Positions 2,832-26,070 of a stretch of 64,000 nucleotides of DNA are shown piece by piece (position 1 is the stretch's first letter; every line of letters starts with the position of its first letter). The stretch is taken from the NCBI RefSeq assembly GCF_014779595.1, contig NZ_JACXZT010000009.1, forward strand, positions 3,378-67,377, read 5' to 3'. Origin of the DNA: Halomonas sp. ML-15 (GTDB taxonomy: Bacteria; Pseudomonadota; Gammaproteobacteria; Pseudomonadales; Halomonadaceae). The position numbers and the translations under genes were made by a program. Under the pieces are notes generated by a model. It ran no database searches and was not told the DNA's origin. It worked only from the letters and a program-made list of their open reading frames with translations.

Positions 2832-3113
2832 ATGAGAGCATTGCGAAGGGGGATATCTCACGAACGAATCAGAGCTGCTGAGTACAAATCGCTTTTTCCC
2901 GCTTTGCTGGCAGGTGAAACCGTCAAGCTATCCGAAAATGCCCGAGGCGGGTTCTGGGCACCTGCCAGCAGTTATGAACAAAGCCCCACCCAACAAGGTG
3001 AGCGGGGGCCGTGCTACCCGCTGACGCTGGCTATGACACCCAACTCAGCCAATGGCGACTGGCATGAAATCGACGGTCGGGCCATCGTGGTCCCAGCCAC
3101 CAGTAACGACTGA
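2832..3113 (+). pseudogene. Leader-module copy 3, truncated and diverging after ERGPCYPLTLAMT; abuts the family B gene
   Basis: Conserved core present. G5 frame. Downstream sequence unrelated to copies 1 and 2. Confidence 0.35.
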
Positions 3114-3120
3114 GCATCTA

Positions 3121-4242
3121 ATGGCGAAACACACACACAGCGAATCGCTTCCCGAACCGACGCCGGGTCAACCTCACCGCGCCGGCGATATCGAGCGTAT
3201 CGGTACCAGCAAGGTGACCTATCTGGCGCCTTTGCCGCTGCCTACTGGCATGTCACCGGTGGATGTCAGTCAAGCCATCGGCGACCTGAACGATACCTGG
3301 CTCGACTATGGTGCCGGACCACCTAACGTTTTTGGTTACCAGTTGGCCTTATTGGGTCCCTTATCCATTGTTTTTTTCAGTCTTGTGCTGCTCCCCCTGC
3401 TACTAATTTCTAATATGGACTGGCAAGGGTATCGAATGTTGCTCGGCATAGCAGTTTTCGGAGGAGGGGGAATATCCATAATATCGTGGTGGACCATGCG
3501 GGACATGCACCGGGAGCGCTTGGGGGCTACCCCCATCCGCTTCCACCGCCAGCGCCGTGAGGTGTGCTTTATCGTCAAAGAGCGGCGCCTGGGCCATGAG
3601 GTCGAGGAGCCGGTCATCATTCCCTGGGAATCGCTGATGGCCTGGGCGGTGGAGGGGTATGGCGCGACCCAGTACGGCACCACGCGGCAGTATGGTCTGG
3701 GAATCGGCTATGCCCACCCCAAGACAGGCAAGTGGTTAAATACCGAGGGCCTGACGGCGGGCATGGCTCTCTCCCTCGGTGAGTGGGAAGTACTACGTGC
3801 TTATATGGAATATGAGCTGAATAGCCTCGATGAGGTGCAGGATCGTCTCGGTCTGCGGGCGCCTGGCGACCCGCCTCACCAGGGTGTGCATACCATTCGC
3901 AATGCCCGCCGTAAGCTCCACCAGAGCCTACGTGAACGTCCCTCGCTCTGGCGCTATCTCTACGCGATAGGGTGGTACTTTATCAACGCCATGACGTTGT
4001 GGACGCTGCCGGGTTATCTGGCGGAGCGGGAGCACCGGCTCATCCAGCAGCAGCGGCCGCAGCTCAAATTGCCCGAGGTGGAAGAGTGGTCGAAGCCCCT
4101 CCCCAAGGAGCAGTGGGCCAAGCCCAGCGAGGAGCTGGTCAGGCTCTCCGCAGAGGTACGGCGGATCCGAGAGTGCGACCCGCAGCGTCCTGTCGAAGAG
4201 GTGTTCGCTGAGGCGTATCGGAAGGAAGGGATCGAGGCCTGA
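3121..4242 (+). CDS. Membrane protein, cassette family B paralog 1 (~373 aa), unknown function
   Basis: N-terminus aligns with paralog 4279-5610 (LAPLPLP vs LSPLPLP). Shared RQRREV(C/A)F(I/V)V and EWSKPLPKxQWAKPS motifs. 2 TM helices with GGG linker. Confidence 0.7.
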   Translation: MAKHTHSESLPEPTPGQPHRAGDIERIGTSKVTYLAPLPLPTGMSPVDVSQAIGDLNDTWLDYGAGPPNVFGYQLALLGPLSIVFFSLVLLPLLLISNMDWQGYRMLLGIAVFGGGGISIISWWTMRDMHRERLGATPIRFHRQRREVCFIVKERRLGHEVEEPVIIPWESLMAWAVEGYGATQYGTTRQYGLGIGYAHPKTGKWLNTEGLTAGMALSLGEWEVLRAYMEYELNSLDEVQDRLGLRAPGDPPHQGVHTIRNARRKLHQSLRERPSLWRYLYAIGWYFINAMTLWTLPGYLAEREHRLIQQQRPQLKLPEVEEWSKPLPKEQWAKPSEELVRLSAEVRRIRECDPQRPVEEVFAEAYRKEGIEA

Positions 4243-4278: not shown

Positions 4279-5610
4279 ATGTTCAAGACCGCGCCCAAAA
4301 ATGCCCTGCCCCCGATGCGCGCCGGTGAGCGTGAAAGCCGCGCCGGGGGGGAGCAGTACTGCTTGAGCCCATTACCGCTACCCGTGGATAGCGAGCATGC
4401 AGTAGACGTGGGACATATTGATGTGCGCCATAAGGACGTCACAATGGATATCCGCCAGGGGGCCAGTCCCGAAAGCCTCATGACAGCAGGGCATATGTTA
4501 AGCATTGGGACGTGCGCTATTCTTGTGCTATTTCTTATTACATGGGGCGCTGTCGGCGGTTTCCCACCGGATTCACAGCTTATCTCGGTATGGGTGGGAG
4601 GGCTCTATTTCATTTTCCAGTTTGTCTTTATTCTAGGCATCGTCTGGATCAATACGCTGCTCAGGCGCCTCCCGCCTATTCGTCTTAACCGTCAGCGCCG
4701 CGAAGTGGCATTTGTGGTGGATCCACCTGGCCGCTTCTGGCTACCAGCGCCTCATAATCTCTGGTTAACGTCTACGGTGGGTATGGCTGCCGCAATACCT
4801 GGTGGTATGGTAATAATTGAAATTGGCGAATGGTTGCGCAGCGCCCGGGAGAGTTTTCCGCTGGGGCTGACACTACTCCATCTCGGCGCAATGGCTTTTT
4901 TCTTTGTTTATCCCCCGATCTACGATGCCTTCTGCCGCCTCTTCAAGCGCGAGCGCCGCACGGTGTTGGTGCCCTGGGAAGACGTGGTGGCGGTGTGTGG
5001 GTTTAACCCCAGCCTGGGGCCGGGCGCCATTACCGGCTTTGGCTGGAACTTTGCCCTGCTGCCACCCGATCCCGAGCGGCCGGGCTATACCCTGCCCGGG
5101 GCGGGGATTATGGTTGGCGTCGGCGGCCTGCCCGGCGCGCTGGCCCAGTGGGAGTACATCCGCCGCTTTATGGAAGAGGGCGCCGAGGCGATTACGCCCT
5201 CGGCCAAGGAGTGGGGCCTCGAGCGGTACGACGCCTATGTCGCTCGTGAAAAGGCGGCATGTGAGCGTACCAACGACAAGGCGCGCTGGCGGCGCTTTCG
5301 GCGCAAGCGCCTGTGGGAGCATGCCCGCTTCGCCCACTGGTACACCGAATATCGCATGAAGCACGTGCTGCCCAAGGCGGTTCCCAAGGACTGGCTGTCG
5401 GAGTGGTCCAAGCCGCTGCCCAAGGCACAGTGGGCTAAGCCCTCCGCCGCCGTCACCGAATTGAGCGAGCACCTGCGCGCCGCCTACCAGCGTGGCGAGA
5501 AATTTACCGACATGGGCGATATCGAGAAGCGCTTTGGGATCGCGCCCCCGGCGGCCAGCCAGAGGGCCTATCCGTCGTTTCCGTTTAGAGCTAAGGCTCA
5601 ACCCGCATGA
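4279..5610 (+). CDS. Membrane protein, cassette family B paralog 2 (443 aa)
   Basis: AAGGA RBS upstream. Paralog of 3121-4242. Proline/glycine-rich insert. Confidence 0.7.
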   Translation: MFKTAPKNALPPMRAGERESRAGGEQYCLSPLPLPVDSEHAVDVGHIDVRHKDVTMDIRQGASPESLMTAGHMLSIGTCAILVLFLITWGAVGGFPPDSQLISVWVGGLYFIFQFVFILGIVWINTLLRRLPPIRLNRQRREVAFVVDPPGRFWLPAPHNLWLTSTVGMAAAIPGGMVIIEIGEWLRSARESFPLGLTLLHLGAMAFFFVYPPIYDAFCRLFKRERRTVLVPWEDVVAVCGFNPSLGPGAITGFGWNFALLPPDPERPGYTLPGAGIMVGVGGLPGALAQWEYIRRFMEEGAEAITPSAKEWGLERYDAYVAREKAACERTNDKARWRRFRRKRLWEHARFAHWYTEYRMKHVLPKAVPKDWLSEWSKPLPKAQWAKPSAAVTELSEHLRAAYQRGEKFTDMGDIEKRFGIAPPAASQRAYPSFPFRAKAQPA

Positions 5611-5638
5611 GTAATAAGCTGGTAGATATAAGTGCGTC

Positions 5639-6097
5639 TTGATAATAGATAAGAAGGCTGAGGTCTGTTGGGCTCTGCCCTCATATAGAAGTAAAAACCA
5701 ATGGAATAGCAAGGATATATCAGTGAAGACATTCGATGTTTATGAACATTCTGTTCATGGTGCAAGGGCAGTCAAGCAGGGAATCAACTGGCCAGCCTTC
5801 TTCTTTTGTTGGATCTGGGCCATGGTGAAAAAGATGTGGGCTATTGGGTTTTTTCTGCTCGGCCTATTGGTGGTGTTCGTTGCCATTGAAGAGTTTTTCT
5901 TATACTACGCTAACATAGGGGGCGTATACCTCATGTGGGCAATGCAGCTGGCCGTGTTCCTATACGCTGGAGCGAAAGGGAATGACTGGCGTAGAGGTCA
6001 TCTTCGCAAGCGTGGCTTTCAGTACATTGGCAGCGTAGAAGCGGCGAACCAGGATGCTGCAGTAACCTCGGTAAAGCAAGCCGACTCGGCCTTATGA
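5639..6097 (+). CDS. DUF2628-like small membrane protein
   Basis: GINWPAFFFCWIWAMVKKMW motif, typical of the DUF2628 family. 2 TM helices. Confidence 0.55.
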   Translation: MIIDKKAEVCWALPSYRSKNQWNSKDISVKTFDVYEHSVHGARAVKQGINWPAFFFCWIWAMVKKMWAIGFFLLGLLVVFVAIEEFFLYYANIGGVYLMWAMQLAVFLYAGAKGNDWRRGHLRKRGFQYIGSVEAANQDAAVTSVKQADSAL

Positions 6098-6257
6098 AGC
6101 AGCAGTACATTAACCAACAGGTGATCAGCCCTGATCTCGGTAACGCCGATGATGATTACTTTGGGTGTGCCAAGATATATAGGATACTTGTCTAGGGCGG
6201 AAGAGCGTCGAGACAATCAATGTCAGGAACCATATATACAGTAAAGGGGTATAGAGT

Positions 6258-6644
6258 GTGAGCAGTGAAGAAGAGAAGGCTGTACTGAAAGAATTGGATT
6301 TCGAGTGTCCCTCATGTGGTTCTTGCTTCTGCGAAGAGTCGCAGTGGGTCGCCAATCTTATAGAATTCAAGACAGCCACTTGCCCAGACTGTAGCAGCGA
6401 GCTGGCGATGGGCGAAGAAGATGAAAGTCGACTGGTGGAATTTATGAAAAAGAAGGAAAGATTTGGAAAGGCGATGTTTGTATTTATGCTGCCCTATATG
6501 ATTGGGGGGCTTGCTGTGTCTCTCTACTTCGGTGGTCTCGGGTTTATGCTCTATATGCCCGTCGGAATTGCAGGCTTCGCACTCCTGAAAGTGCTATTCG
6601 ATAACCAGTCCGACATGACCGTTCGCTTTAATCTGAGTGAGTAA
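6258..6644 (+). CDS. Zinc-ribbon (CxxC…CxxC) protein with C-terminal 2-TM anchor
   Basis: CPSCGSC…CPDC motifs. Hydrophobic C-terminus. GTG start with AAGGGG RBS. Confidence 0.5.
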   Translation: MSSEEEKAVLKELDFECPSCGSCFCEESQWVANLIEFKTATCPDCSSELAMGEEDESRLVEFMKKKERFGKAMFVFMLPYMIGGLAVSLYFGGLGFMLYMPVGIAGFALLKVLFDNQSDMTVRFNLSE

Positions 6645-6772
6645 CGTAATTTCCGCCGACCTGGTAGACGGCGGTTTCAATGACCCAGTGTAAGGAATGG
6701 TATGACGCATATGTGGCCAGTAAGAGGGCGCCGAGCGAGCGCACCAAGAGTTCGGCAAGACAGGGAGTTCGC

Positions 6773-9028
6773 ATGATCTGCAGGAAAGGCCTCATTTTTT
6801 CAATTGTGGTGACCATGACGATGGTTATGGGCTGCTCATCCGAGCCTGAGTCGGTTGCGTTTGCTCCTGAAAAAGGCGACACACGGAGCTACCAACTCTT
6901 CAGTGAGGGCAGGCTAGGCTCCGGGTCATCCAATACCGGTCGTGATCAGGTTGTAGGGTTTGGCTCGGTATTGCGCTATGAGGTACTGGATATTGGCCGA
7001 TCTCTGAATCTGGCGATTACTCCCAGGTATCTAGAACAAAGCGTGGACGGGAGACGAGAGTTCTCCACGATGGATCCTTCGGATACCCAGAATCCAGTGA
7101 TGCGGGAGCTCATGTCCGCGGGCTTTGAAGTCGACATCGACAGTGATTCTGGAGAAGTGCGCCGTTTTACCAGCCGTAACGAGGACCTCTGGCAGACATT
7201 ACAGGAGGATGGTCTAGCGCCATTGCTCGAGATTTTCGAGGAGCAGATGACCACCGGTATGGCAATGCCTGAGATTCCGCTGACCGAAGGCGAAGTGGTG
7301 ACAGTGTCGGGCTCTCATGGCGCTGCTGACTTGCAGATTACAGTGCATTCGGTGACGGATACCGAGCTCGTGACAACACTCCAGACCGATCATGAAGAGG
7401 TCAAGTTGGCAGGCACCATGGTGCTGGAGCGTGAAACCGGATGGCTTCGTCGTCTTGCCGTGGTGAGCGAAGTGAGTCAGGAAGATCACGAAGGGCATGG
7501 CACGGTACGCCAGGCACTGGTCATGCTGCCGGAGGATGAGCCGTCCTGGTTGGGGGCATGGCTTATTAATATGGCGCCGAGTGATCCAGATGATTATGTC
7601 GCTATTCAGCCCGGCCCATCGCCGGAGGAGTTCGATGGCGATGCATTGGTAGATGGGGATACTGTACTGACTGCGCCTGTGGGTACATGGGTACCTTTTT
7701 CCAGTGAGATCGTTCTGGAGATTGACCATGATCTACCTAAAGGGGCGTTCTCTGGGTATCTAGATTTTGCTGATTTACGGATTGAAAGCGAAGAGGGTGA
7801 GGTACTGGATGTAGGGTTACAACAAACCATGCGTTACGCCTTCTATCACCCCGATCGCAAGCGGCATACCACGCAGGCTTGGTATGTTCCCCTTGGTTGG
7901 GGCGACGAACTGGCACCGCTGGAGCGCGCGAAGCGTCTTACTGCAACGGGAGTAGCATACCGCCCGGTGGCGGCAGAAGCGCTGGATTTGCCGCTGGACA
8001 GTGATCAAAAGACAGAGGTGACATCTGGGGACATCCGTGCCGAGGCAATACCCACGGATAGTCCGAGGGAGTTTTTATTGCGCTTTCATAGTACGCCGGA
8101 TCACTGGTTCGGTGATCGTATCTACGGCATAAAAGATGCGATTACGCGGAGGATTCCGGAAGAGGACGCTCCAGACTGGCTGACATCCCACGAGGCTTGG
8201 ATGTTACAAGCGGTGGCGATAGGACGTTCGACAGCCAGCGACCTGCGTGTCGAGTTTGAAGAGGGCAAGACCCCTGACAGCTTGACCCTGTTCGCGCTCA
8301 GCGAAAGCGAAGCCGTTCCCGTCGACGGTCCTGTCCGTTTTGTCACCGAAGAGGCCCGCTACTCCGATATCGATCTGCCGCCCCCCTTTGACGTCACCCT
8401 TTACCCAGACGGGGATGAACCGCCTCAGGTTGGATTGGCTGACCTGGAATTACCCGATGCGGAGAACAACCGCGCGCTGTTTAGGCTCCCGGCGTCCTTG
8501 GCAGCCATGTGTGAACCAGTGGTGGTCGAGGCCCCGAAGATCAATAACCAGCCACTGGTGTGGCAGCACGTTGATGAGGACGACGCTGGTAACCGGCAGC
8601 AACTGCCCACTGAACAGAAATGGCAGCTGATTACCGAGGATGGCGTGCGCAAGCACTTTTATGACATTGAAGTAGAAAGCGAGCTCCGCTGTCGGGGAGA
8701 AGGAGAGTGGCAGACGGTAGACCTGGCGCTGGGTGACAAACCTTGGCTCGTGCGCCTGGACGAGCTCCCAGACGCTGTTGATCAAGAGCAGAGCATGAGT
8801 CGCTTCCTCCAGCGTTACCGCTTTGTCAGTGAACAGGGCGATGCGCTGGCACCGATGCCGAGAGAGAGGTACAGCGATGTCTCTCTGGCCACAGCTTCAA
8901 TTGCCGATTACCTCAATGAAGGTGATCGGCTGCGTCTGGCGGGAAGTGTCCAGCGAGTGGAGCGTTTCGAGGGCGATGGTCAACCCGACACACGCCGCTG
9001 GTCGCTACGCTACGCGCCGCTGCCATAA
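6773..9028 (+). CDS. Large acidic lipoprotein (~751 aa), unknown function
   Basis: Start at ATG 6773 (GGGAG RBS) gives signal peptide with lipobox VMGC. Long acidic ORF with no recognisable catalytic motif. Confidence 0.7.
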   Translation: MICRKGLIFSIVVTMTMVMGCSSEPESVAFAPEKGDTRSYQLFSEGRLGSGSSNTGRDQVVGFGSVLRYEVLDIGRSLNLAITPRYLEQSVDGRREFSTMDPSDTQNPVMRELMSAGFEVDIDSDSGEVRRFTSRNEDLWQTLQEDGLAPLLEIFEEQMTTGMAMPEIPLTEGEVVTVSGSHGAADLQITVHSVTDTELVTTLQTDHEEVKLAGTMVLERETGWLRRLAVVSEVSQEDHEGHGTVRQALVMLPEDEPSWLGAWLINMAPSDPDDYVAIQPGPSPEEFDGDALVDGDTVLTAPVGTWVPFSSEIVLEIDHDLPKGAFSGYLDFADLRIESEEGEVLDVGLQQTMRYAFYHPDRKRHTTQAWYVPLGWGDELAPLERAKRLTATGVAYRPVAAEALDLPLDSDQKTEVTSGDIRAEAIPTDSPREFLLRFHSTPDHWFGDRIYGIKDAITRRIPEEDAPDWLTSHEAWMLQAVAIGRSTASDLRVEFEEGKTPDSLTLFALSESEAVPVDGPVRFVTEEARYSDIDLPPPFDVTLYPDGDEPPQVGLADLELPDAENNRALFRLPASLAAMCEPVVVEAPKINNQPLVWQHVDEDDAGNRQQLPTEQKWQLITEDGVRKHFYDIEVESELRCRGEGEWQTVDLALGDKPWLVRLDELPDAVDQEQSMSRFLQRYRFVSEQGDALAPMPRERYSDVSLATASIADYLNEGDRLRLAGSVQRVERFEGDGQPDTRRWSLRYAPLP

Positions 9029-9045
9029 ACAGGGAGGTATGTTTC

Positions 9046-10929
9046 ATGAAACGTTTTTGCTGTGTTCTGGTGTTCACCTTGGCATTTATCCCGTGGCTGG
9101 TGCTAGGCGAAGAGGGGGGCGATATTCAATGGATCGACGCCGACCTTATGGGGGTGGAAGAGGGCGACTCTACGGCCGCGTACTACTTTGAGCCACCGGT
9201 GGCCGATGGTGAACTCTGGTCGGTCATCCTTTACTACATTGACGAGAGCGACGGCGATGATCCCGTGGTCGCGTATGACGTCCAACTCGATAACCCGGAC
9301 TTTCACGATGCGTTCTTGGTGGGTGAATACAGCCGCTACTACCAGGATGGCAGCCTCCACAGAGTTGGCACGCTGGATGACAAGAGCCGACCACATGGGA
9401 CCTTTACCCATTATCACCGCGATGGCAGCTACGAGGTGTCGGAATATCGGCATGGGCAGCGTCATGGATACCGTCGCGACTACCACGCCAACGATCAACT
9501 GAAACACGAGCAGCACTTCGTTGATGGCGAGCCCGAGGACGGCGAGCGCGTTTACTACGATGAGAATGGTGAAGTGACAACGCGATACTGGCACGTGGAC
9601 GGCAAACTGCATGGTGCGTTGGAACGATTCGTTGGCGGTGTGCTGATGCTAGGGGAGGACTACGTTGATGGACAGCGGCACGGTTGGGCGCGTCGTTTTA
9701 CCGAGGAGGGTGAAAAGGTCAGCGAAGTGGAGTTTGTAGGCGGACAGAGACATGGTGTTGAACGTCGCTGGAGTGATGGCCAGCTTACTCTGGAGAGCCA
9801 CTATCGGCACGGCCAGCAACATGGCCAGCGCCAACGATGGGACGATGGCGTCCTCATCGTGAATAGCTCGTACGTGGAGGGGTCACGTCAGGGTGAAGCG
9901 CAGTTCTTCCGTAATGATGGTACCCGAAGCCGTTACGAATACCGGGATGAGGACGGGCAACTCATTGAGAGACGGGAATATGGCACTGACGACCAGATGA
10001 CCTCGCTGATGATCGTCGAAGAGGGGGAGTACGGCCCTATGACTCGCCAGGAAACCTATCGCGACGGTGCGCTGGTGAGACGCAGGGTGAATAGCGAGGA
10101 CCGTCGTTGGAGTCTGGACGAGCAGTTTCAGCCCCCTGGTGCGGAAGAGCCACGTTACCGACGGGAGACGGTTGACCGTGAGATGCACGGCCGCCAGGTG
10201 AGACCGCTCAACTGGCCAGAAGGTAGTACTGAGATCGGTGAATACGATCATGGTGTCCCGGTGGGGGAACACCGGCATACCGATGAGGATGGCAATCTGA
10301 TCGCCGGTGGGCGGTATGAAAACGGTCACAAAGTGGGTGAGTGGATCACGCTGAGCTACGAGAGCACTGTCCACGAGAACTATGACGATGAGGGGCGTTT
10401 GCACGGCGAGCGTCGGGAAGTCCACGAGGATGGCACGCAGCTGGTGCGGGAGCATTATCGACATGGGGAGCGGCATGGCGATTACATTCAGCGCCATGCG
10501 TGGAACGGGCACATCATAGGCGAAGGTGAGTACCGCGATGGTCAGCGGATCGGCACATGGCGGGTGTTCAACGATTCCCACCAGGCGACATTCGAAGGTG
10601 AGTATGTCGACGGTGAAAAGGACGGACTCTGGGTAGCCCACTTCGAGGATGGCTATGAGCGTGGGAGGGTTCGCTATGACGCCGGATTGCCAGTGGGTGA
10701 TCACTACATTTTCACCCACGATGGCGCCGTGGAGCTAGTCTCCCGTTACGAGGAGGGGCGGCTGCATGGTGAGCAACTGCGTTATTTCGAAGGTACGTTA
10801 AGTGAGGTCCGGCGCTATCGCAATGGAGAGCCCCACGGATTGAACGAGTTCTTCCTGCCTGACGGCGAGCGCTACATGGTGTCGGAATACCGTGACGGCG
10901 TTCTGCTGGAAAGGGAAGACGAGCTGTGA
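9046..10929 (+). CDS. Secreted MORN-variant (YwqK-like) repeat protein (627 aa)
   Basis: Signal peptide. More than 15 tandem ~23-aa repeats of the form Y..DG.L...G.Y..G.RHG. AGGGAGG RBS. Confidence 0.75.
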   Translation: MKRFCCVLVFTLAFIPWLVLGEEGGDIQWIDADLMGVEEGDSTAAYYFEPPVADGELWSVILYYIDESDGDDPVVAYDVQLDNPDFHDAFLVGEYSRYYQDGSLHRVGTLDDKSRPHGTFTHYHRDGSYEVSEYRHGQRHGYRRDYHANDQLKHEQHFVDGEPEDGERVYYDENGEVTTRYWHVDGKLHGALERFVGGVLMLGEDYVDGQRHGWARRFTEEGEKVSEVEFVGGQRHGVERRWSDGQLTLESHYRHGQQHGQRQRWDDGVLIVNSSYVEGSRQGEAQFFRNDGTRSRYEYRDEDGQLIERREYGTDDQMTSLMIVEEGEYGPMTRQETYRDGALVRRRVNSEDRRWSLDEQFQPPGAEEPRYRRETVDREMHGRQVRPLNWPEGSTEIGEYDHGVPVGEHRHTDEDGNLIAGGRYENGHKVGEWITLSYESTVHENYDDEGRLHGERREVHEDGTQLVREHYRHGERHGDYIQRHAWNGHIIGEGEYRDGQRIGTWRVFNDSHQATFEGEYVDGEKDGLWVAHFEDGYERGRVRYDAGLPVGDHYIFTHDGAVELVSRYEEGRLHGEQLRYFEGTLSEVRRYRNGEPHGLNEFFLPDGERYMVSEYRDGVLLEREDEL

Positions 10930-12038
10930 TGAGGTGCCAGTGGAAATCGATGAGGCTGCCGATCTCGGTGATGCTGATGATCCTGACGTTGATCGCGTGT
11001 GACTCAGCCAGGGATGTCGATGTGATTCAGGAGTACCGGGGAAACAGCCATCGTACCGGGCTGTTCGAGGGTAGTGGGCCAAGTGAAAAGCCCAGTCAGC
11101 TATGGCGCTTCCTCACATTGAGTGTGCTGACAGAAACTCCGGTGATCGGCGGTGACACCTTGTTCGTTGGAAGTACCGATCGCTCCGTCTATGCTCTCGA
11201 CGTAGACACTGGAAAGCGGCGTTGGCGTTACAGAACTCTGGGCAATGTTCGCGATGCGGTCGCTGTGGACGAGCAACGCGTTTATGCTGCTGGTGAGGAT
11301 AATACTTTCTACGCCATCGACCGCTATAGCGGCGAGCCACACTGGCAGTTTCCCCTGGACAAGACGCCCCACGGTGCTGCCGCGGTGCGCGAGGGCTTGG
11401 TCTACTTCGGCAGTTTCGATGATCGAGTGATTGCACTGGATACCGACACCGGTGAGCTAGTGTGGGAGTTTCAAGGCAGTCGATCGTTCGCCGCGGGCAT
11501 CACCGTGGTCGAGGACACCCTGTATGCCGCTAGCTTCGACGGACATCTCTACGCGTTTGATGCCGAAACTGGGGAGAAACGCTGGCGGGTTTCCGTGGGT
11601 CGAGGACATTGGCTGACCACCACGCCTGTCTACCGTGAGGGGCAGGTCTTCGTCGGTGGTTGGGCGCAGTACATGACGGCTGTCGGCGCCGAAACAGGAG
11701 AAATCAACTGGACCATCGACACCGAATCTCGGTTGGACCATCCTCCCAGCGTGGCACATGGCTTGGTCTACATCAGTGGAATGAACGCTCTGCAGGCCGT
11801 GGATGAGCAGACTGGGGAACTACGCTGGTCCTTCGATGAGCGCATATTCCGCTCCCCCGCGGTGACCGATAATCGCCTATACGCCGCTTGCGAGAACCAG
11901 GTCTGTACCCTGGATCCTATCAGTGGCGAACTGCTTTGGCGCTCCGATCCGTTGAGCGATACCGTCACTACAATCACCGTGCACGGAGATAGGCTTTTCG
12001 TGACCACCATTGATGGTTATATCTACGCCCTGCAGTGA
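10926..12038 (+). CDS. PQQ-like beta-propeller repeat lipoprotein (BamB-like fold)
   Basis: Lipobox LIAC. Repeats of (V)YAxxxDxxhYAhDxxTGExxWxF. Start overlaps the upstream stop (translational coupling). Confidence 0.75.
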   Translation: MMRCQWKSMRLPISVMLMILTLIACDSARDVDVIQEYRGNSHRTGLFEGSGPSEKPSQLWRFLTLSVLTETPVIGGDTLFVGSTDRSVYALDVDTGKRRWRYRTLGNVRDAVAVDEQRVYAAGEDNTFYAIDRYSGEPHWQFPLDKTPHGAAAVREGLVYFGSFDDRVIALDTDTGELVWEFQGSRSFAAGITVVEDTLYAASFDGHLYAFDAETGEKRWRVSVGRGHWLTTTPVYREGQVFVGGWAQYMTAVGAETGEINWTIDTESRLDHPPSVAHGLVYISGMNALQAVDEQTGELRWSFDERIFRSPAVTDNRLYAACENQVCTLDPISGELLWRSDPLSDTVTTITVHGDRLFVTTIDGYIYALQ

Positions 12039-12187
12039 GGGGGCGTGTCAGCCCGCGATCTAAACATGGGTGAGTGTCTGTCACCCATTGAGTACGAACG
12101 GCATTATTGCCAGAGCCCATCGGGTGTTCAGAATACCCGATGTGGCGCATAAGAAACTGTTGAGCAACCGATCGAGACAGGTGAAAA

Positions 12188-12760
12188 ATGATAAGGATCA
12201 TTAGATACTTCATTATTACTACGGTTATGCTGGCCAGCTTTTCGGCAGCTGTTGCCGAAAACAGAGATGAGAAGGAAGAAGTGATTGAACTGTTTTCAGA
12301 ATATCTGGAGGCATATTCAGAGTCGGACTTTCATAGAGCAGCAACCTTTGTCCATCCGCAACATTTGAGTGACTATGAACGATACACTCTCCCGGTGCTG
12401 ATTGAGGCGAAGAACCACCCCAGGGGTGCGCAGCACATGATTGTGGAGGTGTTTTTTGAGGGGGTGCCAGACGACAAGATCCATGAGCTAACCGGCAAGC
12501 AGATATCAGCACGCCTTGATCGCGCTATGGTGAGTTATCTCCCGATAATTATCGAGTCAGCGCGTATGGAAAACTTAACTATCAAGACGGTCGATTTCTT
12601 GGACGAGGGTCGTGCCAGGGTAAGCTATGATTACCTTAATAGTGATGGTGAGATAAATGAACTTGAGGATAACTTCGCAAAATATGAAGATGAGTGGAGA
12701 ATTTTGCTGCCCGAGCCACCTAAACAAGCTGCAGAGAGTTTGAAGAGCCTTTATTGGTAA
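12188..12760 (+). CDS. Small secreted protein (signal peptide), unknown
   Basis: N-terminal signal sequence MLASFSAAVA. Acidic. Confidence 0.55.
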   Translation: MIRIIRYFIITTVMLASFSAAVAENRDEKEEVIELFSEYLEAYSESDFHRAATFVHPQHLSDYERYTLPVLIEAKNHPRGAQHMIVEVFFEGVPDDKIHELTGKQISARLDRAMVSYLPIIIESARMENLTIKTVDFLDEGRARVSYDYLNSDGEINELEDNFAKYEDEWRILLPEPPKQAAESLKSLYW

Positions 12761-12819: not shown

Positions 12820-13455
12820 ATGGAGCAATACATGATCCCTTTTCGTTTTAATAGAGACTTTGATGTCGAGATGCTCGAGTCTCTATATCAGCATCTCCGC
12901 ACCCATGACAATGGAGTGGAACTTACTCTACGTGCTCCAGGCGGAAATAAAGTAGACGCTGCTGGCAAGGCAGTTTCCGGGGTGGTCAAGGATGCTGGAG
13001 GAAGAACATTGTTATCAATGCGCCCAAAAGAGGGGGTTGTTTACTTGAGGCGGGCTGGTGCTTTAAAGGCACCTCTGATTGATTTTCTTAAGGAGCGTGG
13101 ATTTGATCAAGATAAAATAAATGGTGAGCTTTCCGTGGTATGTATCGGTGTTTACATTGCGCTAGTGGCTGGTCTTGGGTTTTACTATTTTCTCAATGCC
13201 CAGATGCTGTATTTTTACCCTGTTCTATTGATGTGCGCAGGCGTGATGGTTGCTGGATTATTTCTCTTGTCGCACTCCAGCAAGCCGGGCCAAGAGGTTT
13301 GGGAATTACCCGGAATGATTATGCTTGTTCTAGGCGCTTTGTTTACCGCCCCAGCGTGTATCTTGGCGAAGCCAATGATCAAGACGCTTGGGCTAAAGAA
13401 GTTGCAGTATCATCTTGTACAGGACAATGTCAGCTTGTATGAGGTAGAAAGGTAG
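12820..13455 (+). CDS. Membrane protein, unknown (soluble N-domain plus 3-4 TM)
   Basis: Hydrophobic segments in the C-terminal half. Confidence 0.45.
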   Translation: MEQYMIPFRFNRDFDVEMLESLYQHLRTHDNGVELTLRAPGGNKVDAAGKAVSGVVKDAGGRTLLSMRPKEGVVYLRRAGALKAPLIDFLKERGFDQDKINGELSVVCIGVYIALVAGLGFYYFLNAQMLYFYPVLLMCAGVMVAGLFLLSHSSKPGQEVWELPGMIMLVLGALFTAPACILAKPMIKTLGLKKLQYHLVQDNVSLYEVER

Positions 13456-13495: not shown

Positions 13496-14071
13496 ATGAT
13501 TGATCATGAGTTGTACAGGGGAAAATCTGTGAAATGTACCGCGTGCCAAGAAGGCAATCTGATCCCGAGCTTCCTGGATGACTTGTTTCGTTGTCATACG
13601 TGCGATAGTTGCGGCGGGAACTGGATCTTGATTGAAGACTATATTAGCTGGAAGGAACGGCATCCGGAGCATGTGTTCTCCGGTGAGAGCATCGATGCCG
13701 AGGATTCGCCGGGTGCCTTGATCTGTCCTATGAGCGGCGGGTTGATGCGAAAGTTCCGGATTGCCAAGGACAATGCCCATCGAGTGGATTATAGCGCCAG
13801 GGTCGGTGGAGTATGGCTACACAAGGGTGAATGGGAGATGCTGGTGGCCGAAGGCTTGGCGGGCAACCTTAATGCTATTCTGACGGACCAGTGGCAGCAC
13901 CGTATTCGCCAGGAGAAAGCCAGTGAGTCCCTCGAGAACTTGTATCGCAGTAAGTTCGGGGAAAGTGACTACCAGAGGGCTTGCGAAATCAGGGAGTGGC
14001 TGCATGATCATCCGCAGAAATCTGATATTCGAGCGTTTCTCATGGCCGATTCGCCGTTCTCGGTATCCTAG
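13496..14071 (+). CDS. Tandem TFIIB-type zinc-ribbon domain protein
   Basis: C..C…C..CGG.W and CPMSGG…GGVWL.KGE.E.L patterns characteristic of bacterial zf-TFIIB-like ribbons. Confidence 0.5.
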   Translation: MIDHELYRGKSVKCTACQEGNLIPSFLDDLFRCHTCDSCGGNWILIEDYISWKERHPEHVFSGESIDAEDSPGALICPMSGGLMRKFRIAKDNAHRVDYSARVGGVWLHKGEWEMLVAEGLAGNLNAILTDQWQHRIRQEKASESLENLYRSKFGESDYQRACEIREWLHDHPQKSDIRAFLMADSPFSVS

Positions 14072-14756: not shown

Positions 14757-15461
14757 CTACGAGGCAGATTCGCTACGCGAAGCCTTCAAGCGAGCCATGA
14801 CACCTTCCACAGCGTCGCTTTCCTGATCGATGCCTGCTGCCTTCAGGCGCTCGTCGAGGTCGGCACCGGTCAGCTCCTTCTCCAGCTGCACGCTGGCATG
14901 TTGCTTATCCTCAAGACGTTGCTGGCGCTCGCGGATACGAGCGAGGGTGGTCTTGGCACTGGTCAGAGAGGACTGGTTGCTACCGATGTTGGTGTCGATC
15001 TGAGCGGTAGTGCGGAGTACCCGCTCGTTGGTCTTGACCACTTGGAGTTCGCGCTTGTATTCGGCCAGCTGTTTCTCCGACTTCTGCATGCGTTCACGCA
15101 TGCTGTCCACCTTGCCTTGCAGCTTGGTACGGGTGGCGGTTAGCTCGCTGCGTTGGCGCTCTGCTTCCACGATGCGTTCGGCGACTTCGCGAGCCAGGTC
15201 TTCCTTGCTGGCTGCCAGGGCCTTGCGGGCGTCATCTTCACGGCGGGCGATTTCATCTTCTGTATTCTTGATCTGGCGTGCAAGGGAGGTGTTCTCGGCC
15301 ATCAGGGCTGCAAGCTCCTGACGCGCCTGTTGAAGCTCGTTCTCGGCGTCACGTATTTCCTGTTCGAAGATGCGGTTCGCCTGGTTGTCCACGACCGACT
15401 CGCCCAGTTCGTTAACCCCTCCGCGCATGGCGGTAAGCATTTTCTTGAATACCGATTTCAT
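14757..15461 (-). CDS. PspA/IM30 (ESCRT-III-like) family protein, YjfJ-like
   Basis: N-terminal MKSVFKKMLTAMRGGVNELGE…NQANRIFEQEIRDAENELQQARQ. Coiled-coil throughout. Typical PspA/IM30 length. Confidence 0.85.
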   Translation of the reverse strand: MKSVFKKMLTAMRGGVNELGESVVDNQANRIFEQEIRDAENELQQARQELAALMAENTSLARQIKNTEDEIARREDDARKALAASKEDLAREVAERIVEAERQRSELTATRTKLQGKVDSMRERMQKSEKQLAEYKRELQVVKTNERVLRTTAQIDTNIGSNQSSLTSAKTTLARIRERQQRLEDKQHASVQLEKELTGADLDERLKAAGIDQESDAVEGVMARLKASRSESAS

Positions 15462-15476: not shown

Positions 15477-15881
15477 TTACTTTAAGAAATCTTCAAATAT
15501 TTCAAGTAGATCAATGGCGTTGTCGGCAAGAGTGGTTAGCTCTTGGGCAATTTCTCGATAGGTTGCCGAAGTGGCCAAGGCCCCATGTACGACATAATGT
15601 TGCTCGATTTTGCCAAGAGCGCTGAGTGGCATGGGCACGCTGAGTCTCAGCATGTTGTCGAGAAGTGTCGGGAGACGCTCCGGGATGACTTCACCCTCAT
15701 CAAAAAGGTAAGTGAAGCATAGAATCTGTGCTTCGTCGGCGGTGAGGTAGACAGGCATCTCCTCTGCGCCCGAAACGGTAACCTGCAGCACGTCTTCTTT
15801 ACCTTCTATAGGCATGACGTGGAAGTGTCGACCTTCATGGGTCGTATCGCTGAGGTGTAATGTGAGGTCTTGCGTATCCAC
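15477..15881 (-). CDS. YjfI-like (DUF2170) cytoplasmic protein, partner of the PspA-family gene
   Basis: Size and position immediately upstream of the PspA-like gene mirror the E. coli yjfI-yjfJ arrangement. Sequence recalled as DUF2170-like with moderate certainty. Confidence 0.55.
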   Translation of the reverse strand: MDTQDLTLHLSDTTHEGRHFHVMPIEGKEDVLQVTVSGAEEMPVYLTADEAQILCFTYLFDEGEVIPERLPTLLDNMLRLSVPMPLSALGKIEQHYVVHGALATSATYREIAQELTTLADNAIDLLEIFEDFLK

Positions 15882-16047: not shown

Positions 16048-16683
16048 ATGATGAGGCAAATGTCGATATTTCTATCTATTATCATATCTTTTCCTACCGT
16101 CGTTTTTACTGTTCTGCTCTGTGTTGCCGTTATCTATTGGCTCGTATCCCTATCGGGAATGGTCGATGGTGATGTACTGGATGGTGATGTTGGAGGCGAT
16201 GGGGCAGTAGACTTCGGTGGTTTGCTCGCCACGCTTGGGCTCCAAGGTGTGCCGTTACCCCTGATGGTGACGCTCCTGTCTTTAACGGGCTGGCTGTTGA
16301 GCTACTTCGCTGACCTGTGGCTGGGCGTTAGTACTGCATCTGGCTGGCTAAGTTGGTTGCTGGGCATCGTTCTCCTGCTTGCATCGCTGGTGGGCGCACT
16401 CTTTGCTACGGCCATTCTCATCCGCCCGCTACGGCCCCTGTTCGTGCGGGCATACCACAAGCCGCAAGAAAAGCAGCTCATTGGCACACTCTGCACGATT
16501 CGTTCGGGCTCGGTTGGTCTGGGCAGTGGAAGTGCCGATGTCCACGTCGATGGCTCGCACTTGATTCTACAGGTAAGAAGCGACTCGGCCTTGGCACGCG
16601 GGGACCAAGCCGTACTGATCGAATACTTGTTGGAAGAGCAGGCCTACTGGGTCGTACCTGAAAAAGAATTCCATACCGGCTAG
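16048..16683 (+). CDS. NfeD-like membrane protein (YqiJ family) with C-terminal OB-fold
   Basis: TM helix, acidic DGDVLDGDVGGDG stretch, further TMs, C-terminal beta-rich segment. Gene directly precedes the flotillin gene. Confidence 0.75.
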   Translation: MMRQMSIFLSIIISFPTVVFTVLLCVAVIYWLVSLSGMVDGDVLDGDVGGDGAVDFGGLLATLGLQGVPLPLMVTLLSLTGWLLSYFADLWLGVSTASGWLSWLLGIVLLLASLVGALFATAILIRPLRPLFVRAYHKPQEKQLIGTLCTIRSGSVGLGSGSADVHVDGSHLILQVRSDSALARGDQAVLIEYLLEEQAYWVVPEKEFHTG

Positions 16684-16706
16684 GCCGGTGTAAACACGCA
16701 GGCAAC

Positions 16707-18662
16707 ATGGAGACTAAAGCAATGGATTTGTCGTGGATCATGCCACTGATTGTGGCAATTGGTGTTATCACCATTACTGTTTTTGCCTTGCTGGCGTTAT
16801 TTCAGGCTTTTTATCGAAAAATCGATCAGGGCCAGGCGCTGATCGTCAATGATCTCTCAATGACACCGAAGGTGTACTTTACCGGTGCCATGGTGTTGCC
16901 GGTCATTCATCGCTCCGAGATCATGAAGATATCGGTCATTACTCTGGAGATGAATCGCACCGGTAAAGAAGGCTTGATCTGCCGCGACAACCTGCGTGCC
17001 GATATCAGCGTGGCCTTCTATCTCAGGGTCAATGCCACGGCAGACGATGTGCTGCGCGTTGCCAAGTCGGTTGGTGTGGGGCGCGCCTCCGACCGTGATG
17101 CGGTAAATGAGCTGTTCAATGCCAAGTTCAGCGAGGCGTTGAAGACCGTCGGCAAGAAGATGGACTTCATGCAGCTCTTCGATGAGCGCCAGCAGTTCCG
17201 TGATGCCATCGTCGAGACCATCGGTCAGGACTTGAATGGCTACATCCTCGAAGACGTGGCGATCGATTATCTCGAGCAGACGCCCAAGAGCTCTTTGGAC
17301 TCCAATAACATTCTGGATTCAGAGGGCATCAAGCGCATCACCGAAATCACGGCCCAGCACAACGTCGAGACCAATCGCCTGGAGCGTGACCAGGAGCTGG
17401 AAATCCAGCGCAAGAACGTGTCTGCCCGTGAAGCGGGGCTGGAGCTGGAGCGTACCCAGGCCGATGCCGAAGCCCGCCAGCGTCGGGAGATCGATAGCCT
17501 GCAGGCGCGCGAGAGCTCGGAAACCGAGCAGATTCGTCAGCAGGAGCGTGCCAAGAGCGAGGCGGCACGCATCAAGACTGACGAAGAGCTGGCGATTGCC
17601 GATGAGAACAAGCAGCGCCAGATCGAGATGGCGGCCAAGGCGCGTGAGCGTGCCGTGCAGATCGAAGAAGTGCGCATTCAACAGGCGCGCGAACTCGAGG
17701 ATGTGAACCGCGAGCGCGCCGTGGAAATCGAGCGCATCGGCATGGAGAAAGCGCTGGAGGGAGAGCGCAAGGAAATCGCCGACATCACCAGCCAGCGTAT
17801 TGCCGTTGAGCGCAGCGTGGCGGAAGAAGAAGAGAATATCAGCGATGTCCGTAACCGTGCCGAAGCCGAACGCCACAAGGTGACTCGTCTGACGGCTGCC
17901 CAGGCGGAAGCGGAAGAGCGCAAGCTGAAAGAGGTGAAGTCGGCCGAGGCGGCTTTCGAGCGCTCCAAGCTCGAAGCCGAGGAAACGGTGATTCGCTCCC
18001 AGGCCGAGCTGGATGCCGCAGAGAAGAAGGCGGCCGCGGAAGAGAAACAGGCGCGTGGGAACCAGGCACTCGCCGCCGCCGATGGCCTGGCGGAGGCGCA
18101 AGTGCTGGAAGCCCGTGCACATGCGCAGCGCAGCGAAGGCTTGGCGCAGGCCGAGGTCAAGACGGCGAATGCCAAGGCCGAGGAAGATACCGGCATGGCC
18201 GAGGTGCGTGTGCTCGAGCAGCGTCTCGAGGCAGAGGCGATGGGCGAAGAGAAGCTGGGCGCTGCCAAGGCGCAAGCCCGCGAAGCCATGGCGTGCGCCG
18301 AGGCGAACGGCCTCGTCGAGAAGCTCAGGGCCTACGACAACATGTCCGAGGAGGCTCGCCACTTCGAAGAGTTCCGTATGAACCTCGAGGTGCACGAGAA
18401 GGAAGTCATGGCTCAGATCGAAGCGCAGCGCATCGGCATGCTGGAGAACGGCAAGGTGATGGCGGCAGCGCTGCAGAATGCCAAGTTCGAGCTGATCGGT
18501 GGCGATGGCGATATCTTCGAGAAGTTCGCAACGGGGCTCGGTTATGGCAAGACCGTACAAGGGGTTCTCGACAAGTCACCGGCACTCCAGGCGGCCCTGA
18601 TGGGGATCGCAAACCGGGCAGTGGGCAGCCAACCAGCGGCCAAGTCTACCGAAACCGCTTAA
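16707..18662 (+). CDS. Flotillin / SPFH (band 7) family protein, YqiK-like, with long Ala/Glu-rich coiled-coil tail
   Basis: N-terminal TM. GAMVLPVIH motif matching YqiK. SPFH core. ~350 aa EA-rich coiled coil. Confidence 0.9.
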   Translation: METKAMDLSWIMPLIVAIGVITITVFALLALFQAFYRKIDQGQALIVNDLSMTPKVYFTGAMVLPVIHRSEIMKISVITLEMNRTGKEGLICRDNLRADISVAFYLRVNATADDVLRVAKSVGVGRASDRDAVNELFNAKFSEALKTVGKKMDFMQLFDERQQFRDAIVETIGQDLNGYILEDVAIDYLEQTPKSSLDSNNILDSEGIKRITEITAQHNVETNRLERDQELEIQRKNVSAREAGLELERTQADAEARQRREIDSLQARESSETEQIRQQERAKSEAARIKTDEELAIADENKQRQIEMAAKARERAVQIEEVRIQQARELEDVNRERAVEIERIGMEKALEGERKEIADITSQRIAVERSVAEEEENISDVRNRAEAERHKVTRLTAAQAEAEERKLKEVKSAEAAFERSKLEAEETVIRSQAELDAAEKKAAAEEKQARGNQALAAADGLAEAQVLEARAHAQRSEGLAQAEVKTANAKAEEDTGMAEVRVLEQRLEAEAMGEEKLGAAKAQAREAMACAEANGLVEKLRAYDNMSEEARHFEEFRMNLEVHEKEVMAQIEAQRIGMLENGKVMAAALQNAKFELIGGDGDIFEKFATGLGYGKTVQGVLDKSPALQAALMGIANRAVGSQPAAKSTETA

Positions 18663-18788
18663 GGCATGGGCGACACCGCGTAGGTGCGTGTCGCCGGGGC
18701 CAGCCTTGCCTGTGTCCCGACCTTTCGCTTCAGGGCCGCCATGTATTGCACATGCTGCGGCCCTTGCCATTGCCAGCCTACTTCCAGG

Positions 18789-21700
18789 ATGAAGACTATG
18801 TCGAAGGGACCAACTCAGGTCGAGAGCATCGTCAGGGAAAGCACTGCATTCGAGACCATTCAGCGGCGCTTGCGATCCCAGGGTGAAAACCTGCACGCCT
18901 CAGTCGATAAGCTGAACGAGGAGCGTGCCGGGGTTTTCGGTAGCAGCAGCATGGCCCTGCTGGGGCGTGCCCGGGTACGTACCGAGAACAATACCGTGGC
19001 ACGCGATATGGTGCGCATCGGTGACAGGATTCTGTTCGGTTTCAATGTGCAGCTGGGTCTGCGCAAGGCGCTCGAAGTCGGCGATATCTTCTCGCTTTAC
19101 TATCTGGAGGATACCGCCGATGGCTTCGAACTTCAGGAGGCTCCGCTAGAGGGTAGCTTCCTGACGGATGAGCGCTTCGTACAAGACTTCCGGGAGCTGC
19201 AGCAGTACTACAGCAATGCCGTGCTGGTGCAGCTGGCTGTGATGAACGGGATGCTGCTGGCGGCTTTCCAGATTGGCGAGAAACTGACCGACGTACGCGT
19301 GTTTCGCTGGGAGCTGTCGGCGGACGGCAGCGTCAGACGTTACATCGACAACCGGGGCGAGCGCGACCTTGTCCTGCCGGAGCGCTTTGCGTTTCCCTGG
19401 AAAGAGGCGGGTCGTGACCATCAGGAGCAGGGGCGCGCGCCGCACCTGAACATTCTCGACACGGTCTTCATCGACAACCTGCGCGGCAACATTACCTTCA
19501 AGATCGAGAACAACACCGGCAGCGGCGAAGGCATCTATGCCGACCCGGTGGAGTCGGACTCCCAGTCGCTGGACGATGCAGCCTTCGAATATGCCGACCT
19601 GGGCGCGATACTGCTGGTCAGGATCCTGCCCTTCAACGAAAGCCAGTGGCGCTATTATCTGTACAACCGCTCCGAGCAGGTGGTGCAGCGGATAGACGAG
19701 ATGGCCGGCTCGGTCGTCGCGCTGCCCGAAAACCACGGGATCATCTTTCCGTCGGGCTACTACCTCAACAGCGGTGAGCTCAGGACCTACGAGGTGCCCG
19801 ATGAGGACCTGCGCTTCAAGCGCATGGTGCGCTCGCCGAACGGCGAAGACGTTCTCTACATCTTCTATGCGCCCCACACGGGCCATGTGGTGCTCTATCG
19901 CTACAACCTGATCCGCAAGCAGACCGACACGCCGATGGTCGGTCATGGCTTCGCGTTGCTGGAGAATGGCCATCTGGCGATTTTCCACTCCGAGGACGAG
20001 CCGACCCTGGTGCACCCGATCCAGGTGTGGGACACGCCGTTCATGTCGGAGAACTTCCATGCCCAGGATGCCGTTCGCAACGACACCCCGCTGGGTCGAA
20101 TCGGTAACCCCGAGCTGGTGCGCGGGATTGCCGAGCTGAACAGCATCGTTCAACTGGCGGGGGAGCAGCAGGCTTCCGAGCGACATTACAATGCCATCAT
20201 CCGGCGGGTGGACCGCGCGCTCAATCAGTTCCACTGGCTGGGCGAGGCCACCTTCGAGGCGGTGCACGATCTGCTGGTGCAGCTCAAGCATACCGCTGAA
20301 CTGATGCTCGACGAGTATGAGAAGGTCCAGGCGATCCGGGGGCAGACGGCAGAGGCCCTGGATAGCATCGGTGGGCAGCAGGACACGCTGCTACGGGAAC
20401 TCAAGCCGAGCAGCTGGAAAACGCCGGATCAATTCGTATCGCATCTCAAGGCGCTGCGCGATCACCGCGGCCGCCTGCTGGCGCTGCGGGATCGTCGCTA
20501 TCTCGATGAGGAGCGTCTGCAGGAGCTGGAGCAGGCGTTGGACAAGGCCGAACGGACCCTGACCGGCCAGACCTTCGACTTTCTTGCGACGCCCGAAGCG
20601 CTGGACGGCTATCGGGCGACCCTGGCTGCATTGGCAGAGCGCGTGAAGGAGGCCGAAACGCGGGATCAACTGGGCAAATGCGTCGGCGAGTATCGCGAGC
20701 TGACCGCCGGCCTGGACATGATACAGGCCATGCTGTCGTCCATGTCCGGCGACGATGCCACCCAGCAGACCCGTATTACCGAGAACATCTCGAGCATTTA
20801 CGCCACCATCAACCAGCAGCGCTCCGAGGCGGAGATCCGCATGCGCGAGCAGGGCAGTGCCGAAGCACAGGCCCAGTTCGCCGCTCAGATCCGGCTGTTC
20901 GAGCAGAGCCTGGCCAATGGCGTGGGGGCCCTGCGTGAGCCCGACGACTGCGACCAGTTGATGACACGGATGCTGGATCAACTGCAGGAGCTGGAGGGGC
21001 AGTTCGGCGAGTTCGACGAATTCCTGAGCATGATCCTGGAGCAGCGCGAGAGTGCCCACGAGAGTATCGAGGCGCGCCGCCAGCAGCTGCAGGACGAGCG
21101 CCAGCGCCGCGTCAACACCCTCACCGATGCCACCAAGCGCATTCTGCAGAACGTGGAGCGGCGCACCGAGCGCTTCGAGACCCTCGAGGAGCTGCACAGC
21201 TTTTTTGCCTCGGATGCGATGGTGGCCAAGGTGCGCAGCATGGCAGACGAGCTGCGTGAGATGGGCGCCAACCTCGAAGCCGATGACCTGGCCGGGCGCT
21301 TGCGCTCGACCCAGGACGCCGCCCTGCGCAGTGTCCGTGATCGGGCCGATATCTATGAATCCGGTGGCAATGTCATCCGCCTGGGGCCGCGCCATCGTTT
21401 CAGTGTCAATCAGCAGCATCTGGACCTGACGCTGGTGCCGCGGGATGACAGTATCATGCTGCATCTCACCGGTACGCAGTTCTATGCGCCGCTGAAGGAT
21501 GAGCGCCTGGAGGCGCTACGCCCCTACTGGTCGATCACCCTGCCATCCGAGACCGACGAGGTCTATCGGGCCGAGTACCTGGCTTACCTGATCATGGAGG
21601 CGCTGGCGCGTCCCGGAGCCGAGCGGATCAACGTGGAGGACCAGGCGGAACTGGAGCGCTACATCAGCCGCTTTGCCTCGCCGCGCTACCGCGAAGGCTA

Positions 21701-24580: not shown

Positions 24581-24683
24581 ATGCCTGATAGCTCGTGATT
24601 TAACCTTCTCTGAGCTAAGAATCATAGTGCCTATGAGGTCATTGGATTTTTTGGTGAAATAAATTCAAGCAATTCCGGGGTGT

Positions 24684-25925: not shown

Positions 25926-26070
25926 CTTTTTATCAAAAAAATGGGCAAGTGTTAATGGAGTGATAGCAATGGGACATGGCAATACGATACTATCTGGGGC
26001 AGGTGTTGCGCTTAGTCACAGAGGCTGCCGTGAGTAAAGCAACTTAATTTAAGAAAAACGAGGTTATGTA

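Follow-up and report, generated by a model that had tools for sequence, protein, structure and literature searches.

A conserved gene pair for a large lipoprotein and an exported MORN2-repeat protein in Halomonas sp. ML-15 and other Proteobacteria

Gene organization of the locus

We analyzed a 64,000-nucleotide (nt) stretch of DNA from Halomonas sp. ML-15 (RefSeq assembly GCF_014779595.1, contig NZ_JACXZT010000009.1, positions 3,378 to 67,377), referred to below as the window. It carries a cassette of three genes, g1, g2, and g3, whose core is a two-gene, translationally coupled g1-g2 module; g3, which encodes a beta-propeller protein, is optional. Open reading frame (ORF) calls revealed four same-strand ORFs filling positions 6680-12760 (g1 ORF, 6680-9028; g3 ORF, 10926-12038), as stated in an earlier reading of the same DNA, hereafter the original prediction. 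g1, g2, and g4 matched IEI94_05705, IEI94_05710, and IEI94_05720, respectively, at 100% identity. The features of the locus are as follows.

g1, 6773..9028, + strand: 751-amino-acid (aa) lipoprotein; lipobox VMG-C21, Ser at +2; family without an existing model
g2, 9046..10929, + strand: 627-aa Sec-exported protein; short N-terminal region, then ~18-22 MORN_2 (YwqK-type) repeats
g3, 10929..12038, + strand: ~369-aa PQQ_2-type beta-propeller lipoprotein; lipobox LIA-C, Asp at +2; lineage-specific accessory
hairpin 1, 12066..12088, + strand: 3' of g3; 8-bp stem, 7-nt loop, without a U-tract
hairpin 2, 12118..12142, + strand: 3' of g3; 12-nt arms, 92% complementary, without a U-tract
g4, 12188..12760, + strand: 190-aa exported protein; neighbor, outside the cassette

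The 751-aa form of g1 starts at ATG 6773, with GGGAG located 6 nt upstream, and its N-terminus aligns with those of the homologs. g2 follows after 17 nt and has GGGAGG upstream of its start, while its stop codon (TGA, 10927-10929) overlaps the start of g3. The same one-base TGATG stop/start overlap was present in both Microbulbifer loci described below; because it is kept there, ATG 10929 is likelier to be the g3 start than GTG 10926, which had been chosen originally. The 128 nt upstream of g1 showed unremarkable folding (z = 0.01) and no candidate in a promoter scan, and the whole window contained no Rfam match and no tRNAs.

Export signals were read by eye in all four products: the lipobox VMG-C21 in g1, the start MKRFCCVLVFTLAFIPWLVLG in g2, the lipobox LIA-C in g3, and AVA|EN in g4. 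These signals were also kept in the homologs on inspection, in agreement with the claim that all four proteins are exported. The description of g1 as acidic held as far as its low isoelectric point is concerned, but low values (4.4-4.9) are common to all four products and the acidity is not distinctive. Acidic proteins are usual in halophiles.

The four genes had been taken as one operon with tight junctions followed by two stem-loops. The junctions are tight between g1 and g2 and between g2 and g3, but g4 lies 149 nt downstream of g3, past the two hairpins. Both stem-loops exist, a few bases from the positions first given, and the spacer that holds them had an intergenic fold z of -2.76. They lie between g3 and g4 rather than after g4, so the unit that they close has three genes and not four. 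Neither hairpin has a U-tract or was called by the terminator scan. They were also considered as repetitive extragenic palindromic (REP)-like elements, a candidate that was rejected as neither is repeated elsewhere in the window.

The GC content of g4 is 45.5%, versus 56-58% for g1-g3, and no g4 homolog was found in the other 35 loci bearing the cassette core. Only four g4 homologs were found in total, in unrelated contexts, and in both Microbulbifer genomes g1-g2-g3 is followed by a convergent gene, without g4. g4 is thus outside the cassette. Otherwise the original proposal was supported: a tightly coupled unit, located in an accessory region, encodes envelope proteins that are exported.

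Pairing and distribution of g1 and g2

The pairing of g1 and g2 was examined through all-against-all ORF clustering of 36 non-redundant loci, all from Gamma- and Alphaproteobacteria of marine or saline origin. When one genome per species was scanned with a 12-sequence g1 alignment, 31 loci were obtained. These belonged to the gammaproteobacterial taxa Microbulbifer, Marinobacter, Pseudomonas mangrovi, Salinisphaera, Shewanella, Idiomarina, Alteromonas, Celerinatantimonas, Chromatiaceae, Pseudoalteromonadaceae, and Vibrio, and to the alphaproteobacterial genera Martelella and Thalassospira. An Aliidiomarina homolog (P0009) was obtained without contig placement. The tblastn results revealed a g2 homolog directly 3' of the g1 homolog in every locus with downstream DNA. 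The same-strand order of g1 and then a MORN_2 gene held in 36/36 non-redundant loci and also in the plasmid copies examined. The two genes were separated by gaps of 2-17 nt or, in many loci, had a 4-nt overlap of stop and start codons. Over the 36 loci, no families other than g1 and g2 were universal; other recurrences reflected genus-level synteny, besides the propeller in four loci. The g1-g2-g3 order was kept in two Microbulbifer species and a Marinobacter metagenome-assembled genome (MAG). Homologs were therefore not scattered singly without operon structure, the outcome that the original prediction had named as speaking against it.

Distant g2 homologs, from Shewanella algae, Alkalimonas, Gallaecimonas, Vibrio mimicus, and a metagenome, were each preceded by a 718-774-aa protein without a Pfam match. 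The preceding proteins of S. algae and Alkalimonas are lipoproteins and full-length g1 homologs (27% identity; E = 1e-68 and 7e-75, respectively). The propeller was absent from all five of these loci. No g1-g2 fusion protein was found among the homologs listed.

The pairwise-identity matrices of g1 and g2 were correlated with r = 0.96, and with r = 0.81 for pairs below 50% identity. As judged from these matrices, the correlation shows co-inheritance of the two genes as a unit; it fits co-evolution without proving it.

Variations of the pair were observed in three genera. Salinisphaera loci (L014, L017-L019, L027, and L029) contained tandem expansions with as many as three g1 paralogs, among them a short form limited to the N-terminal two-thirds, and mostly two MORN_2 genes per cluster. 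Two Shewanella loci (L022 and L026) had a second g1 paralog and a single MORN_2 gene, and in Gallaecimonas (L005) an extra 182-aa MORN_2 gene was located between g1 and g2.

A word-seeded search of 5.8 billion proteins returned five g1 relatives, namely g1 itself, two Microbulbifer proteins (44-45% identity), and two Logan-assembly fragments, so that the sequence from the window was the single Halomonas g1 in that collection. The GC content of g1-g3 is below that of the core half of the window (60-70%). The cassette looks foreign because of this composition and because it is unique among the Halomonas sequences in the database; on sequence grounds, g1-g2-g3 is a horizontally acquired envelope cassette. 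Plasmid copies of g1-g2 were found in Martelella, Rhodovulum, Plesiomonas, and on the megaplasmid of Shewanella oneidensis MR-1. The MR-1 pair consists of SO_RS22780 (WP_011074434, a 776-aa lipoprotein) and SO_RS22785 (WP_011074435, a 576-aa MORN_2 protein) at NC_004349.1 126416-130485 (positions 5026-9095 of our locus L043), and hhalign joined SO_RS22780 to the g1 family with a probability of 100% (E = 8e-51). Insertion sequence (IS) elements of the IS481, IS3, and IS256 families lie immediately downstream of this pair, and an IS4-like element lies ~4.6 kb upstream. The literature on the old MR-1 locus tags and BtapC yielded nothing usable. On Shewanella chromosomes, the position of the pair is fixed, with ftsEX-like ABC/FtsX genes and a gene of the sigma-70 family next to it.

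The patchy distribution, the plasmid-borne or IS-flanked copies, and the location of the Halomonas cassette in a variable low-GC island would fit an envelope-level exclusion or defense module carried on mobile DNA and directed against phage or bacteriocin entry. However, g1, g2, and g4 had no PADLOC or PHROG match, g3 matched there only as a generic propeller, and the position within Shewanella is stable. To our knowledge, no exclusion system of this composition is known, and we regard this explanation as improbable.

Protein families and predicted folds

g1 had no match in Pfam, NCBIfam, PADLOC, or PHROG, consistent with its original description as a lipoprotein without a recognizable family, and the 11 relatives in the 12-sequence scan were likewise without a Pfam match. 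When 1.84 billion cluster representatives (clusters at 50% identity) were searched exhaustively with a profile, the family comprised 132 members, mostly 710-790 aa in length, with a subgroup of ~505-555 aa that is without the C-terminal third. A lipobox, mostly with Ser at +2, was found in 54 of 72 family members, and the rest had signal peptides or N-terminal anchors. Because of the Ser at +2, the g1 lipoprotein is probably located in the outer membrane. Residues C580 and C640 of g1 were invariant in the 12-sequence alignment, and g3 likewise has an invariant pair, C322 and C327; these Cys pairs fit an oxidizing compartment.

Structure prediction of g1, proposed with the original prediction as a check, was performed using AlphaFold2 on 72 family sequences and gave a confident model of a compact multi-domain protein (predicted local distance difference test score [pLDDT], 91.1; predicted TM-score [pTM], 0.86), whereas a 5-sequence input gave an unusable pLDDT of 45.8. 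In the model, residues ~27-255 form an N-terminal beta-barrel of ~12 strands with three internal helices, and the remainder is beta-sandwich-like. The first strand begins only ~5-10 residues past the lipidated Cys. A Foldseek search against the PDB matched the model to the ApoB100 barrel, MTP, and lipovitellin at a probability of 1.00 (E down to 2.5e-7; TM ~0.2), with lower matches to DynF (0.97), LolA (0.77-0.89), RseB, and AttH. The barrel of the large lipid transfer proteins (LLTPs) was placed first by two independent methods, and hydrophobic-ligand binders were prominent among the matches. These fold matches call for caution, with an identity of just 6-9%, a high root-mean-square deviation, and similar scores for transmembrane barrels. 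PA1994, another barrel described as a sheet wrapped around a helix, drew the same mixed list of fold matches (PMC2954207).

A profile search of g1 against the PDB gave nothing below E = 0.08 and no tie to any solved structure, and no Pfam or NCBIfam model of the LolA and LolB families matched g1 or its 11 relatives. Compared with barrels of the LolA, LolB, RseB, MucB, and LppX type, g1 has no sequence-level relation, is four times larger, and has extra beta-sandwich domains. Unlike the LLTPs (vitellogenin, lipovitellin, ApoB-100, and MTP), it is a bacterial lipoprotein without an alpha-helical superhelix domain and without a Vitellogenin_N Pfam match. The g1 barrel as a putative lipid binder is a lead, not a result.

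g2 matched MORN_2 (PF07661) at 34.3 bits, above the cutoff of 29.6, and a pattern count gave ~18-22 repeat units of 23-24 aa over residues ~85-620. The original view of g2 as a protein of YwqK/MORN-variant repeats was thereby confirmed. No PADLOC or PHROG match was found for g2. Most homologs showed, on inspection, a cleavable signal peptide, followed in many by a conserved WLDxxW motif. An exported MORN2 protein is not exceptional; signal peptides have been found on 87% of 697 Fusobacterium MORN2 genes (PMC4222103). The exported proteins of Fusobacterium and Helicobacter bilis resemble g2 in having multiple repeats and signal peptides (PMC4222103). In Fusobacterium, however, large and variable MORN2 expansions are clustered with FadA and RadD adhesin genes, whereas here a single MORN2 gene stands in strict 1:1 synteny with the g1 family in marine Proteobacteria. 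A ~1090-aa architecture fusing TPR and MORN_2 repeats was also observed in Hymenobacter and metagenomic relatives (matches P0023-P0044); it is unrelated to the pairing with g1.

These likenesses raise the explanation that the MORN2 protein and the lipoprotein form a surface or secreted adhesin system for attachment to particles, hosts, or cells. Exported Fusobacterium MORN2 proteins have been predicted as adhesion or invasion factors (PMC4222103), the carriers of the pair are marine and often particle-associated taxa, and g2 partially matched the LIC20035 family adhesin of Leptospira (NF033566) at 68.9 bits. That score is far under the cutoff of 250 and covers the repeats only, and the adhesin role of MORN2 proteins is itself a prediction. 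Moreover, g2 has a Sec signal peptide only, and no surface-export machinery (type II or type V secretion system, Slam, or similar) was linked to the pair in the examined loci. An adhesin system is therefore doubtful in our judgment.

g3 is a lipoprotein with a PQQ_2 propeller (3e-60), and this part of its description as a BamB-like propeller stood. The relation to BamB did not; g3 scored 159 bits against TIGR03300 (cutoff 285.2) and 111.6 bits against NF008351 (cutoff 423), and its nearest solved relatives were designed, archaeal, or kinase-linked PQQ-like propellers (1e-62 to 1e-26), with BamB at only ~1e-16. g3 resembles BamB (YfgL) as a PQQ_2-type propeller lipoprotein but lies outside the usual bamB genomic context. 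Its presence was limited to 4/36 loci, namely the window, two Microbulbifer species (62-64% identity), and one Marinobacter MAG (47%). By its scores and distribution, g3 is a lineage-specific add-on and not a BamB ortholog. The lipoprotein propeller might also be read as a BamB paralog docking on BamA, with g1-g3 as auxiliary factors of the beta-barrel assembly machinery or of outer-membrane-protein assembly. Given the scores below both equivalog cutoffs, the distance from BamB among the structural relatives, and the absence of g3 from 32/36 loci, we consider such a role highly improbable. A bridge across the envelope, in which Asp at +2 would anchor g3 in the inner membrane, was considered and dropped, since Microbulbifer has Gly at this position and no lipobox is present in the Marinobacter homolog.

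Surrounding genes and proposed role

In Halomonas sp. MCCC 1A11062, a g4 homolog is located in a small-gene array just downstream of vgrG-DUF4123-1181-aa-331-aa, and g1-g3 are absent (L040 8001-11980). The array also contains homologs of the window genes 6258-6644, 12820-13455, and 13496-14071 (42-88% identity, including g4). These results suggest that the four small genes flanking the cassette belong to an array associated with a type VI secretion system (T6SS), possibly of orphan immunity genes, and that g1-g3 were inserted there in ML-15. As the MCCC 1A11062 array is without g1-g3, the cassette is an independent insertion within the small-gene array, and any T6SS tie belongs to the array.

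This array bears on the explanation that g2, with g1 as a helper, neutralizes a periplasm-acting polymorphic or T6SS toxin, and that the region is an orphan-immunity island. Databases annotate g2 as a 'YwqK family antitoxin', the cassette is embedded in small genes (6258-6644, g4, 12820-13455, and 13496-14071) whose homologs in MCCC 1A11062 lie just downstream of the vgrG run, and the upstream paralogs at 3052-4242 and 4279-5610 are membrane proteins, the latter with a weak DUF6708 match (E = 1e-3). The T6SS island of MCCC 1A11062 is, however, tied to the small genes and not to the cassette. No toxin, VgrG, Rhs, CdiA, or secretion gene was present in the seven Pfam-annotated homolog contexts, and no neighboring gene family recurred over the 36 loci. 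The fixed chromosomal position in Shewanella also speaks against immunity, and a pair of 751 and 627 aa far exceeds the typical size of immunity proteins.

B. subtilis YwqK is a small cytoplasmic protein whose gene lies beside the LXG toxin gene ywqJ. g2 shares with the YwqK/MORN_2 family (PF07661, COG2849) the MORN-variant repeat of 22-24 aa. It differs in being 627 aa long and Sec-exported, in having ~20 repeats, and in always being paired with a large lipoprotein. When g2 was tested as a YwqK antitoxin, the repeats were present, but no toxin or secretion gene adjoined the cassette in the window or in the seven annotated homolog loci, and an N-terminal Sec signal peptide, seen on inspection, stood in place of a cytoplasmic location. 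The link to immunity drawn originally from the MORN-variant domain thus found no family-level support, and the recurrence beside secretion systems that was to be checked was not seen in the examined homolog loci. We consider an immunity module unlikely; the evidence favors a role in the cell envelope over one in toxin immunity. The module is neither a four-gene operon, a BamB system, nor a typical toxin-immunity locus.

Over its first 30 kb, the window looks like a mosaic accessory region, whereas beyond 30 kb the GC content is 60-70% and core genes (hemE, an ABC transporter, and GGDEF) are present. The genes at 3052-4242 and 4279-5610 (+ strand) encode tandem paralogous membrane proteins of 396 and 443 aa without a firm family, which share the motif R(F/L)(H/N)RQRREV and the C-terminal motif EWSKPLPKxQWAKPS and may be immunity-like membrane proteins. 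They are followed at 5639-6097 (+ strand) by a gene for a 152-aa DUF2628 protein with a sub-threshold match to the Erum7620/ECH_0207 'putative T1SS effector' (45 bits, cutoff 90). A three-gene run at 16048-23735 (+ strand) encodes proteins of 211 aa, 651 aa (no family), and 1683 aa, the last with DUF3686 ('ATPase involved in DNA repair', 579 bits), DUF7902, and an AAA domain; the run had no PADLOC match. Divergent from it on the minus strand are PspA (14757-15461) and DUF2170 (15477-15881). A second low-GC block (43-52%) spans 24000-30000, with a minus-strand M48 peptidase and DUF898 pair at 26611-28919, and unannotated ORFs were found at 23840-24580 and 24684-25925.

We favor, with a probability of about 0.4, an envelope complex between g1, as an outer-membrane lipoprotein, and the MORN2 protein in the periplasm, with a hydrophobic compound as its possible ligand. 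This explanation draws on the predicted fold, the topology, and the strict synteny of the pair. g1 would be tethered in the outer membrane, with its membrane-proximal N-terminal domain forming a barrel of the LolA/RseB/vitellogenin-N type, a beta-sheet around helices. On the periplasmic side of that membrane, g1 would associate with g2; the barrel would take up a hydrophobic or amphipathic envelope ligand (a lipid, acyl chain, or glycolipid), and the elongated array of ~20 MORN2 beta-hairpin repeats would act as partner or scaffold. In the Halomonas/Microbulbifer/Marinobacter branch, the g3 propeller lipoprotein may have been added as an extra protein-interaction platform.

Several points weigh against this explanation. 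Co-inheritance alone can explain the correlated divergence of g1 and g2, profile searches gave no sequence link from g1 to LolA, RseB, or LLTPs, and the Asp at +2 of g3 is not conserved, being Gly in Microbulbifer, while the Marinobacter homolog has no lipobox.

A bolder form of the envelope-complex explanation is speculative, and we consider it unlikely as it stands. Here g1-g2 would be a new, mobile two-component envelope system of marine Proteobacteria, in which membrane lipid is bound, shuttled, or tethered by an outer-membrane lipoprotein with a vitellogenin/LolA-like lipid-binding barrel, together with a long MORN2 ribbon in the periplasm. If each repeat adds ~1 nm, a figure that we estimated ourselves, an array of ~20 could come close to spanning the periplasm.

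Bacterial MORN2 (YwqK-type) proteins are widespread and mostly exported, and annotation pipelines label all of them 'antitoxins'; for the g2 genes described here, the label 'YwqK family antitoxin' is probably misleading. Exported MORN2 proteins were already known to be common (PMC4222103), and what is new here is the unmodeled partner family, the invariant pairing, and the predicted g1 fold. The impact would be modest if the pair consists of ordinary structural envelope proteins. That one MORN2 clade is locked into a two-gene module with an unmodeled lipoprotein family, whose predicted fold most resembles lipid-binding barrels, provides a concrete hypothesis, and tractable carriers are available in S. 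algae, V. mimicus, and S. oneidensis MR-1, where the pair is on the megaplasmid. If g1-g2 is a lipid-handling system, a function would be assigned to bacterial MORN2 repeats for the first time, and the LLTP barrel would have a structural counterpart in prokaryotes.

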